DNA of 64,000 bases from Thermoanaerobaculia bacterium (lineage in GTDB: Bacteria; Acidobacteriota; Thermoanaerobaculia; Gp7-AA8). Each line of letters starts with the position of its first letter. Within the stretch, counting starts at the first letter, position 1. The stretch lies in assembly GCA_036399015.1 (NCBI GenBank), contig DASWNW010000012.1, forward strand, positions 2,996-66,995, read 5' to 3'. The translations under genes were made by a program, and so were the position numbers. Shown in pieces: positions 10,198-12,102 of the stretch. Below the pieces are notes generated by a model. That model saw only the letters and a program-made list of their open reading frames with translations, searched no databases and was not told the DNA's origin.

Positions 10198-11106
10198 TTA
10201 CTTCTTCTTCGACGTCGTCGTCTTCTTCTTGGCGGCCGGTTTCTTGGCGGCGCTCTTCTTGGCCGGCTTGCGGGCGGCGCTCGTGCCGGTCTGGCCGAGG
10301 GAGCGGCTGAGGACCGCGAGGAGATCGACGACTTCGCCGCCGCCTTCATCGGCGTCGCGGCTGGTCTCGGCGGGCGCCTTCACGATGTCCTGCTGCTTGC
10401 GCTCCTTCTGGGCGACGAGCTTCTCGAGGCGTTCGGCGTAGTCGTCGACCAGCTCGTGCATGTCGAGCTTCTTCGCCTTCTTCGCGATGGCCGCCTCGAA
10501 CTTCTTCACTTCCGCCGGTGAGGCCTTGGCGACTTCCGGGAGGCCGACGTCTTCCGGCTTGCGGACCTCGTCGGCGAAGCGGAGCGTCTCGGCGCGCAGG
10601 ATGCCGTTCTCCGCGATGATTGCCACGAGGTGCTCCTTGGCGCGCATGACGAACGTGGCGATGCCCGCCTGCTTCCGCTTCTCCATCACCTCGGCCAGGA
10701 GGCGATAGGCTTTGTTCGTCCCGCCGGTCGGCACCAGGAAGTAGGCGCGCTGGTAGAACATCGGGTCGATCTGCTCGCGGTCGACGAAGAGGCGCAGGTC
10801 GATCTCGCGCGACTTGCGGGGCTCGATCGCCTCCAGTTCCTCGTCCGTGACGACGACGAACTTCCCCTTCTCGATCTCGTAGCCGCGGACGATGTCGTCG
10901 GGGTCGAGCGCCTTGCCGTCCTTCGAGCAGACGTAGCGGCGGCGCACCGGCGCCTCGTCGGGGCCGATCATCTTCAGCGAGATGCCGCGCGGGCGGGTGG
11001 CGGAGTAGAGCGCCACCGGGACGGTGACGAGTCCGAAGGAGATCGTGCCGCTCCAGAACGGCCGCATCCCGGAGGGTTGGTCGAGATCGTCGTCTTCTTC
11101 AGCCAC
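10198..11106 (-). CDS. ku: Ku protein (non-homologous end-joining DNA-end binding), with Lys-rich C-terminal tail
   Basis: GTG start with AGAGGA ribosome-binding site; core MRPFWSGTISFGLVTVPVALYSA...; C-terminus KKPAAKKKTTTSKKK; overlaps the upstream Ku gene by 8 nt. Confidence 0.9.
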   Translation of the reverse strand: MAEEDDDLDQPSGMRPFWSGTISFGLVTVPVALYSATRPRGISLKMIGPDEAPVRRRYVCSKDGKALDPDDIVRGYEIEKGKFVVVTDEELEAIEPRKSREIDLRLFVDREQIDPMFYQRAYFLVPTGGTNKAYRLLAEVMEKRKQAGIATFVMRAKEHLVAIIAENGILRAETLRFADEVRKPEDVGLPEVAKASPAEVKKFEAAIAKKAKKLDMHELVDDYAERLEKLVAQKERKQQDIVKAPAETSRDADEGGGEVVDLLAVLSRSLGQTGTSAARKPAKKSAAKKPAAKKKTTTSKKK

Positions 11107-11896
11107 TGGCTTTCCTCTTGGCCGGTTTCTTCATGCCCGCGAGGCTGGCCTCCAGCGCGTCGGCGAGCTGGTCGTCCTTCTGTTTCTTCGGGCGGAACTG
11201 CACGACCTTCGGCTTCTTGCCGGCGGCCTTGGTCTCGACGAGCTCCATCACCCGCGCGCGGTATTCGTCCTTGAACTGCTCCGGCTCGAAGTCGCCGTGA
11301 AGCGCGGTGAGGAGGTGCTCGGCCATCTCCAGCTCGCGTTCCGACAGCTCGCGCCCGCCGGGCGGCTTCAGCGCGTCGGAGGCGATGATCTCGTCCGCGT
11401 GGCGCAGCGTGATGAGGATCAGGTAGCCGCCCTCGGCCCGCAGCGCGCCGACGTACTCCTTGTCGCGCATGACCCAGCGGGCGACGCCTTCCTTGTTCTT
11501 GCGCTCCAGCGCGGCGGCGGCGGCGAAGTAGGCCTTCTCGTCGCCGTCGGGTCCGAGGTAGTAGGCGCGCTCGTACCAGCGATGGTCGATCTCGGCGGGG
11601 TCGACGAAGCGGGTGACCTCGATGTCGCGCGAGTCTTCCGGCTCGAGCTTCTGGAGCTCCTCCGGCTCGAGGAGGATCATCCGCCCGCGGGTGAGCGGGA
11701 AGGCCTTCTTCACTTCCTGGTACTCGACCGTGTCGCCGGTATCATCGCTGACGAGCTGCTGTTTGACGGGCTCGTGGTCGGTCTTGTGGAGCAGCCGGAA
11801 GTGGACCTTGCGGTCCTGCACGGCCGAGTAGAGTTTGACGGGCACGTCGAGCGTGCCGACTTTTACGACGCCTTTCCAGATCGCGCGCGCGGCCAA
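11099..11896 (-). CDS. ku: Ku protein, second paralog
   Basis: TTG start 9 nt after GGAGG; N-terminus (M)AARAIWKGVVKVGTLDVPVKLYSAV...; 265 aa; Lys-rich C-terminus. Confidence 0.85.
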   Translation of the reverse strand: MAARAIWKGVVKVGTLDVPVKLYSAVQDRKVHFRLLHKTDHEPVKQQLVSDDTGDTVEYQEVKKAFPLTRGRMILLEPEELQKLEPEDSRDIEVTRFVDPAEIDHRWYERAYYLGPDGDEKAYFAAAAALERKNKEGVARWVMRDKEYVGALRAEGGYLILITLRHADEIIASDALKPPGGRELSERELEMAEHLLTALHGDFEPEQFKDEYRARVMELVETKAAGKKPKVVQFRPKKQKDDQLADALEASLAGMKKPAKRKASG

Positions 11897-12102
11897 CGTT
11901 TGCGCCCTCCTTCCTCCTGACACTCGGAGCAGAACACCTCGTCCCCCACATGAACGGCGCAGACCAGACACTGCACCCGGTCGCACGCCACACACCGCGC
12001 CTCGACCGCCGCGGAGTGAATCCGCCCGCAGCCGGCGCACTGTTCCTCGTGGCCGGTCAGCCAGTACGGGAGGAAGCGGCGTTTCCTCTTCTGTGCTGCC
12101 AC
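11863..12102 (-). CDS. Small zinc-ribbon protein (4 x CxxC) immediately upstream of, and overlapping, the Ku genes
   Basis: GTG start; CAGC-x12-CVAC-x4-CLVC-x10-CSEC; overlaps the Ku start by ~34 nt; weak because high GC favours spurious ORFs. Confidence 0.3.
   Translation of the reverse strand: MAAQKRKRRFLPYWLTGHEEQCAGCGRIHSAAVEARCVACDRVQCLVCAVHVGDEVFCSECQEEGGRKRWPRARSGKAS

Follow-up and report, generated by a model that had tools for sequence, protein, structure and literature searches.

Bacterial non-homologous end joining (NHEJ), as taught, is a process of two components, a Ku homodimer and LigD. The sole hint of a heterodimeric bacterial Ku of which we know is genetic, and comes from one alphaproteobacterium. 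In S. meliloti the genes ku3 and ku4 lie in one operon and always co-occur, only Ku3 carries a Lys-rich tail, and the two products have been described as a putative heterodimer (Dupuy et al., Nucleic Acids Res 2019; PMC6379672). Genetics in that species showed that Ku3 and Ku4 are both needed and act in one pathway, with LigD, and that the operon is controlled by stress or signals, its promoters being of the EcfG/RpoE2 type (PMC6379672). Here we analyze a stretch of 64,000 nt (the window) from a metagenome-assembled genome (MAG) of the Thermoanaerobaculia (Acidobacteriota). It carries, all on the minus strand, a small open reading frame (ORF) with four CxxC pairs, termed znr, followed by two Ku genes, ku2 and ku1. 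We put at roughly 55% the probability that znr-ku2-ku1 is a three-gene operon and a conserved variant of the bacterial NHEJ module, in which a heterodimeric Ku is joined by a zinc-finger accessory subunit, the ZnR protein.

The cassette has features in common with canonical NHEJ, with its Ku homodimer plus LigD (M. tuberculosis, B. subtilis; PDB 9i91, 8v53, 9vnq). Both window proteins are full-length matches to the TIGR02772 Ku family and show about 35% identity each to the homodimeric Ku structures solved for B. subtilis and M. tuberculosis, and LigD adjoins the cassette in several lineages. The cassette differs from the canonical module in its two obligately paired paralogues, in the extra zinc-finger gene, and in having no ligD in the 64-kb window.

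The order znr-ku2-ku1 is essentially invariant. A Ku2-seeded scan of 185,579 species genomes returned 31 loci, with Ku2 orthologues at 50-88% identity. At all 31 of these ku2 is followed by ku1, and 28 of them include znr: 25 were found by tblastn, two are diverged copies situated between ligD and ku2 (in Alcanivorax and in Alloalcanivorax marinus), and one, from the Blastocatellia, is cut by the end of its contig. A second, independent scan, in which metagenome contigs were searched for a degenerate DNA pattern that represents the znr core, yielded 69 true znr ORFs. Wherever at least 300 nt of downstream sequence was available (62/62 loci), a Ku2-type gene starts between -41 and +19 nt from the znr stop, and Ku2 is followed by Ku1 at every one of the 30 loci with at least 1800 nt downstream. 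Independent gene calls with precomputed Pfam hits gave the same succession of znr, Ku and Ku in distant members of the ZnR family, including a variant that lacks the Trp otherwise typical of it. The cassette is present at about a hundred loci, distributed among Acidobacteriota, Gemmatimonadota, Methylomirabilota, Gammaproteobacteria and many soil metagenome contigs.

Two observations concern what lies beside the cassette. In a cultured gammaproteobacterium, Alloalcanivorax marinus R8-12, ligD, znr, ku2 and ku1 form one cluster (L027:1067-3162; NZ_ARXL01000089.1). In 8-10 related loci ku1 is followed by genes for a peptidase C26/GATase, a thioredoxin-TPR protein and a DsbD-like protein (L002:3462-7080; also L003, L005, L006 and L007). 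This block is not found downstream of ku1 in the window, and synteny therefore breaks at the end of the cassette.

The identity between Ku1 and Ku2 is only 32%. In a neighbour-joining tree that included loci from Acidobacteriota, Gemmatimonadota, Methylomirabilota, Alcanivorax and Trueperaceae, their orthologues form separate clades; they are ancient paralogues, each with its own cross-phylum clade. The features of the two clades, measured on 58 complete Ku1/Ku2 pairs, are complementary. Members of the Ku2 clade have a median length of 261 aa (255-271) and a basic linker before the C-terminal motif, and those of the Ku1 clade a median length of 294 aa and an acidic linker, with a median of 8 D/E in 25 residues. 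The tail that follows the motif has a median of 27 aa with 11 K/R in Ku1, and of 11 aa with 4 K/R in Ku2. The preliminary description of this DNA credited both proteins with Lys-rich tails; a long Lys/Arg tail is indeed characteristic of the Ku1 clade, but the Ku2 tail is short. The minimal form of the C-terminal motif (D/x-L-x-x-x-L-x-x-S-L) is present in both window proteins, as VVDLLAVLSRSL in Ku1 and QLADALEASL in Ku2, and a stricter regular expression recognized it in 51/58 Ku1 and 26/58 Ku2 orthologues. Two reports describe the Lys-rich arm of other Ku proteins as binding DNA and stimulating LigD (PMC4889933, PMC9638933).

That Ku2 and Ku1 form a heterodimeric ring in which labour is divided seems to us likely. 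A heterodimer had already been proposed from the pairing of the genes, and it is now strongly suggested by the fixed order (31/31 and 30/30 loci), by the complementary clades and by the precedent of ku3-ku4, although it is still something that we infer. Alternatively, the two proteins could form two homodimers that act separately, for example on different types of ends or with different ligase partners, and that are merely co-expressed, in which case ZnR would serve one of them or neither. Every bacterial Ku that has been characterised and has a solved structure is a homodimer, Ku1 and Ku2 are about equally similar to these proteins, and the Ku2 protein of S. meliloti acts alone. However, strict co-occurrence, fixed order and a conserved 8-nt coupling of the two genes across phyla are hard to explain without obligate co-function, and the differences in linker charge and tail are complementary; moreover, neither ku3 alone nor ku4 alone is functional in S. 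meliloti. We therefore regard separate homodimers as an improbable arrangement, albeit the one that survives best among the alternatives to the operon with a heterodimeric Ku.

The resemblance to ku3-ku4 lies in two divergent Ku paralogues in one operon, with a Lys-rich C-terminus on one partner only, and the difference in the promoter, which is of the EcfG/RpoE2 type in S. meliloti and has a sigma-54-type motif in the znr cassette (see below). The Rhizobiaceae pair was represented in our comparison by that of an A. vitis plasmid, not by the S. meliloti ku3-ku4 locus, and no znr was found upstream of the A. vitis pair. In the neighbour-joining tree, which is of limited depth and does not include S. 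meliloti ku3/ku4, the A. vitis pair and other Rhizobiaceae Ku proteins fall outside both the Ku1 and the Ku2 clades, at 24-32% identity; the znr-linked and Rhizobiaceae pairs are thus not demonstrably products of the same duplication. The 215-260 kb region of S. meliloti pSymA contains ligC (SMa0424) and one Ku gene, not ku3-ku4. Paired Ku genes in bacteria have been known from one clade, and the znr cassette is a distinct, widespread and phylogenetically broad second lineage of paired Ku.

The preliminary description had pointed to the lack of an ATP-dependent ligase near the cassette, with only LigA, at 42718, in the surroundings. A tblastn search with three full LigD proteins bears this out, with no LigD in the 64-kb window at E<=0.01, and the ORF at 42718-44685 is the NAD-dependent LigA. 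The view that this absence sets the locus apart from the usual Ku did not hold up, since ligD adjoins the cassette in other lineages. It lies directly upstream of znr-ku2-ku1 in Methylomirabilota and Alcanivorax, and directly upstream of a ku2-ku1 pair without znr in Trueperaceae. At one locus (L025) znr comes right after the end of a full-length ligD, whose domains are those of a phosphoesterase, a ligase and a polymerase; at two (L026, L027) it comes right after a ligase-polymerase LigD; at two more (L028, L029) LigD abuts ku2; and at another (L023) a ligase-only gene follows the Ku pair. LigD was also found near the cassette in six metagenome contigs. Because ligD adjoins the same cassette in several lineages, we consider the cassette to be an NHEJ module, and the lack of ligD in the window would be a matter of gene order in Thermoanaerobaculia and not of a different function. 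A search for LigD homologues gave 7,993 matches, of which the best 120 are mostly from Proteobacteria, Gemmatimonadota and metagenome proteins.

The first search for ZnR homologues returned seven proteins at 43-83% identity; a taxon is on record for three of these, which all belong to Thermoanaerobaculia MAGs. When 1.84 billion cluster representatives were searched with a profile, the family grew to 293 clusters at E<=1e-3, nearly all of them stand-alone proteins of 60-100 aa, and every named database homologue is a "hypothetical protein". No match to ZnR was detected among 72,556 plasmids by tblastn. An alignment of 70 diverse members has as its invariant columns one Trp, eight Cys and one Asp, with the spacing W-x7-C-x2-C-x11-C-x2-C-D-x3-C-x2-C-x9-11-C-x2-C. 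The distance between the second and third Cys is 11 residues in 161/162 members and the fourth Cys is followed by Asp in 161/162, and the Trp precedes the first Cys by 7 residues in 112/162 (range 6-8). ZnR thus has eight zinc-ligand positions with FYVE-like spacing and an N-terminal Trp; FYVE domains carry a structural WxxD motif with its Trp at the corresponding place.

Matches of ZnR members to Pfam are all below threshold and include DZR_2, Zn_ribbon, FYVE_2, B-box and RING-like families, the last three in 20-42 of the 70 members. The best FYVE_2 E-value, 1.1e-5, belongs to one member, and ZnR of the window has no FYVE_2 match at E<0.1. An AlphaFold2 model built from a deeper alignment has a pLDDT of 84, rising to at least 95 over residues 20-60. 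Its best matches in the PDB are FYVE-type domains (1y02 CARP2, 1zbd rabphilin-3A, 1joc EEA1 and endofin) and PHD fingers. It superposes on 1y02 with an rmsd of 1.2 A over 46 columns (probability 1.00, E-values of at least 0.047) and on 1zbd with an rmsd of 2.0 A. The ORF had been called a zinc ribbon with four CxxC pairs. The four pairs are there, but the label is imprecise: only the sub-threshold DZR_2 and Zn_ribbon matches speak for a ribbon, the fold search favours cross-brace domains, and on the predicted structure ZnR is better described as a FYVE/PHD-like finger with two zincs in a cross-brace. It shares with the FYVE, PHD and RING fingers (1y02, 1zbd, 1joc) the eight ligand positions and the Trp 7 residues before the first Cys, and differs from them in scoring below the Pfam threshold, in being a bacterial stand-alone protein of 60-100 aa, and in its tie to Ku. 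It also lacks the RR/KHHCR motif that binds phosphatidylinositol 3-phosphate; A-V-E-A-R-C precedes the third Cys pair in the window, and the family consensus there is x-x-R-C.

The window ZnR ends in a basic tail (...WPRARSGKAS), and the same DNA encodes the ribosome-binding site and N-terminus of ku2. This tail is not present in lineages without the znr-ku2 overlap, and on comparison of these sequences the overlap itself is probably what gives rise to it. In a close relative, an Acidobacteriota MAG (L006; JALYJW010000032.1, 2327-2766), the Cys-rich core of znr has been lost and the last ~10 codons (...WRREQSGKGS, then stop) are kept; since only the part overlapping ku2 survives there, the tail would be constrained by ku2, not by the function of ZnR.

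We consider the chances about even that ZnR serves as a stoichiometric accessory subunit whose cross-brace finger binds either Ku or the DNA end; roles as a regulator, a redox switch or an assembly factor are speculative. ZnR might, for instance, act on its own operon, as an autoregulator binding DNA or RNA or as a switch sensing redox state or zinc, and not as a repair subunit at all. The small znr opens the operon, in this lineage the N-terminus of its product is basic (KRKRR), and Cys4 zinc sites can work as redox switches. The basic patch, however, is not a feature of the family, at least three K/R being found in only 71/162 members. Where ligD lies upstream, znr keeps its place before ku2 and after ligD and has a Shine-Dalgarno sequence of its own, a placement that fits a structural partner better, and the predicted fold appears closer to protein- and ligand-binding cross-brace fingers than to known bacterial DNA-binding regulators. 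Such a regulator seems to us unlikely, and somewhat more so than separate Ku homodimers.

More doubtful still is the possibility that ZnR docks on Ku by an N-terminal peptide, basic-x-x-P-Y-W-L, in the manner of the Ku-binding motif (R-x-x-P-x-W) of APLF, WRN and CYREN. The window sequence RFLPYW does fit the minimal motif (PMC4831024), and in the alignment the W is invariant and the P nearly so. However, the eukaryotic motif binds the vWA domain of Ku80 (PMC4831024), and Ku1 and Ku2 match the Ku core only. The P is found at -2 in 104/162 members (a count in which the regular expression may anchor on another W) and the basic patch in 71/162, so neither is family-wide. The position of the W, fixed at 7 (6-8) residues before the first Cys as in the WxxD motif of FYVE domains, indicates that it is probably part of the fold. 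The motif R-x-x-P-x-W is moreover present by chance in more than 600 human proteins (PMC4831024). With no target domain in these Ku proteins and no conservation of the basic residues, the likeness between KRKRRFLPYWL and the eukaryotic motif is probably coincidental, and docking of this kind is very unlikely. ZnR resembles the eukaryotic Ku accessory factors (APLF, WRN, CYREN/MRI, XLF and PAXX; PMC4831024) in concept only, the concept being that of a small factor, not an enzyme, that is devoted to Ku; the docking site on the Ku80 vWA domain does not occur in bacterial Ku, the motif is not kept across the ZnR family, and there is no homology.

A sequence resembling the -24/-12 elements of sigma-54 promoters precedes znr. 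The block GGCACG-N6-GCA(A/T)TCTCA, just before the start of the gene, is the only conserved non-coding block among relatives of this locus; the window version is GGCACG-CATCCA-GCA, with the geometry GG-N10-GC of sigma-54 promoters and flanks like their TGGCAC-N5-TTGCW. In other lineages the corresponding place is taken by TGGAAC-N5-ATGCT or TGGCAG-N5-TTGCC. The pattern GG[CA]A-N8-GC occurs at the expected position in 65/93 orthologous loci (70%), against 5.6% of random background windows, and this position is sharply peaked: in 42 of 64 distinct sequences the start codon lies 27-30 nt after the first G. Sigma-54 promoters have their GG at -25/-24, and the 27-30 nt spacing would therefore place the start of the transcript 1-5 nt before the start of znr, giving a leaderless mRNA. 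Translation of znr is probably from such an mRNA, to judge from this spacing; in Alcanivorax, where znr is internal to the ligD operon, it has a normal Shine-Dalgarno sequence instead. The GGAAC-containing promoters were also considered as ECF/EcfG promoters, and rejected: a -35 element at 27-30 nt would put the start of transcription inside the gene, and the spacing fits sigma-54.

The three genes are real, intact, under purifying selection and linked by overlaps of starts and stops. All three ORFs were found where they had been reported, including the two Ku ORFs with their 8-nt overlap, in which the ku2 stop and the ku1 start share the letters GTGGCTGA; independent gene calls give the same overlap in relatives. 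The end of znr overlaps the start of ku2 by 34 nt. The overlaps and Shine-Dalgarno sequences are conserved, so that translational coupling, also proposed earlier, is likely. A programmed frameshift fusing ZnR to Ku2 was rejected in view of the ATGA-type or non-overlapping junctions of other lineages. Ku1 matches Pfam Ku (PF02735) at 2e-47 and TIGR02772 Ku_bact with 262.8 bits, and Ku2 the same profiles at 3e-37 and with 249.8 bits (cutoff 150 bits). The Pfam match spans profile positions 1-190 in both, and neither copy is the decayed pseudogene that had been considered at first. The acidic N-terminal extension of Ku1 is kept in relatives, whereas an internal ATG at 11067 is not, which fixes the start of Ku1 at the GTG that overlaps the ku2 stop.

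Third-position GC of znr is elevated, at 0.9 over 12090-11970, and its start in relatives among Thermoanaerobaculia MAGs was called at the position equivalent to its GTG here. Conservation of the ORF upstream of ku in relatives, an open question in the preliminary description, was examined, and a dN/dS of 0.15-0.28 over the core, relative to the closest relatives, argues that znr is a real, conserved gene under purifying selection. The idea that the small ORF is spurious or one Ku copy decaying, prompted by the many chance ORFs of GC-rich genomes, by the lack of the exact 79-aa sequence from protein collections and by an NCBI Ku2 whose longer N-terminus overlaps znr further, is ruled out, with hardly any room for doubt, by the comparative data: znr is conserved and under purifying selection with eight invariant Cys, and both Ku proteins are full length.

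The NCBI record of Ku2 (HEY0155960.1) has 274 aa, with a start 27 nt upstream of the TTG (window 11896-11923). Orthologues and the Shine-Dalgarno sequence back the TTG, unlike the NCBI start, which was called too far upstream. The ZnR sequence exactly as delimited here has no identical entry in a collection of 15 billion proteins, and znr may be unannotated or differently delimited in the record of its own genome. In practical terms, users of the source record may find znr missing and ku2 begun too early.

We propose that Ku2 and Ku1 would assemble as one heterodimeric ring, in which Ku1 would supply the Lys-rich tail that acts on DNA and stimulates LigD, together with an acidic linker, and Ku2 a basic linker and no long tail. 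ZnR, made in fixed proportion through translational coupling, would join them as the third subunit, an accessory one that docks on Ku or the DNA end and is not itself an enzyme. Transcription would start from the sigma-54-type promoter, so that an enhancer-binding activator would turn the operon on and expression would not be constitutive. LigD would be encoded elsewhere in this lineage; in others it is encoded directly upstream of the cassette. The fullest form of the proposal, that many bacteria have a three-protein complex of a Ku70/80-like heterodimer and a dedicated FYVE-like zinc-finger subunit, produced from a leaderless operon under sigma-54 control, we put forward tentatively, as somewhat less likely than not.

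Several points weigh against this proposal. The association of Ku1 with Ku2, and of ZnR with Ku, is putative. No ZnR member reaches a Pfam gathering score or an NCBIfam threshold, and the Foldseek E-values for this small domain (at least 0.047) are not significant. The case for sigma-54 control consists of the motif and its spacing, and the exact motif is not enriched across the window as a whole. The presence of ligD elsewhere in this genome is presumed. Finally, three loci have the Ku pair without znr, one with the core deleted (L006) and two in which ligD abuts ku2 (L028, L029); ZnR is therefore not absolutely required.

In the literature available to us, whose coverage is incomplete, we found no description of a ZnR-like protein or of sigma-54 control of ku. 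The ZnR family comprises some 300 clusters, all of them "hypothetical", and occurs only ahead of Ku pairs. If the proposal is true, ZnR would be the first accessory factor without enzymatic activity to be dedicated to bacterial NHEJ, and the view of prokaryotic end joining as Ku plus LigD only would be incomplete. A ZnR that is a subunit of Ku would raise the questions of how asymmetric Ku rings assemble, how ends are bridged or LigD recruited when one subunit is without a Lys-rich arm, and how repair is switched on by sigma-54 and an activator. Since the cassette lies next to ligD in the cultured Alloalcanivorax marinus R8-12, these questions can be approached by experiment.

Table 1. Genes and signals of the znr-ku2-ku1 region, with positions in the window
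Feature	Position	Strand	Description	Basis
ku1	10198..11106	-	GTG start, 302 aa; acidic N-terminal extension, acidic linker, long Lys-rich C-terminal tail	Ku profile matches
ku2	11099..11896	-	TTG start, 265 aa; compact, basic linker, short C-terminal tail	Ku profile matches, orthologues
znr	11863..12102	-	GTG 12102 to TAA 11863-11865, 79 aa, four CxxC pairs; no Shine-Dalgarno sequence	ORF, third-position GC (GC3), dN/dS, model
Shine-Dalgarno sequence GGAGGG for ku2	11905..11910	-	8 nt before the TTG at 11896, within the znr coding sequence	read directly
Shine-Dalgarno-like GAGGA for ku1	11113..11117	-	6 nt before the GTG at 11106, within the end of ku2	read directly
sigma-54-type -24/-12 motif GGCACGCATCCAGCA	12115..12129	-	first G 27 nt upstream of the znr GTG	exact match
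intrinsic-terminator-like hairpin with five-U run	10108..10134	-	stem GAACGCCUCC/GGGGGCGUUU	-16.4 kcal/mol, z-score only -1.6
inverted repeat with 31-nt arms of GGTGTCR heptads	12138..12221		between divergent cls and znr	-54.5 kcal/mol, z-score -5.9

The coordinates of the cassette and its signals are collected in Table 1. The hairpin after ku1, which would close the operon, is not among the calls of a consensus terminator scan. Between this hairpin and the ORF at 9255-9911 lies an intergenic region to which copies of a palindrome, GTGTAGCG-N5-CGCTACAC, are confined. There are 3-4 copies at 9944-10175, within repeats spaced 86 nt apart, and 8 strand-matches were counted against 0.06 expected. 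These palindromes may represent an array of operators or else a repeat element confined to this place.

The inverted repeat upstream of znr has a second copy at 24878-24961, with three to four GGTGTCR units facing three to four YGACACC units; both copies are intergenic, and they are the two found in the 64 kb. Relatives also carry heptad inverted repeats upstream of znr, with units specific to each lineage (GTTACTG in L001, GTTGTCR in L011, GAGTSCT in L089). By their sequences, the heptad repeats look like fast-evolving, dispersed REP-like elements, and that of the window is probably not specific to the znr operon. The repeat upstream of znr was considered as a binding site for the activator, a reading that was rejected because no sigma-54 motif accompanies the second copy (24878-24961).

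The neighbours of the cassette in the window are ordinary chromosomal genes, encoding PEP carboxylase, a cardiolipin-synthase-like PLD protein (cls, divergent from znr), PBP1C, alpha-2-macroglobulin, hrcA-dnaK-dnaJ, citrate synthase and IMPDH. PADLOC found no match to a defence system in the window, and Rfam and tRNA scans of it gave no match. Three consecutive minus-strand ORFs of 424-445 aa (47836-49173, 49170-50480 and 52182-53456, within the region 47836-53456) have strong coding GC3 and no Pfam match at E<=1e-4. Within the PEP carboxylase ORF (5409-8165), a low-complexity insertion, SSS(GSS)6, comes before a stretch rich in Thr and Arg, which is unusual for this enzyme. A small gene of the DUF433 family, which is often paired with PIN-like toxins, is located at 8333-8587, with PEP carboxylase on one side and the genes that lie downstream of ku1 on the other.

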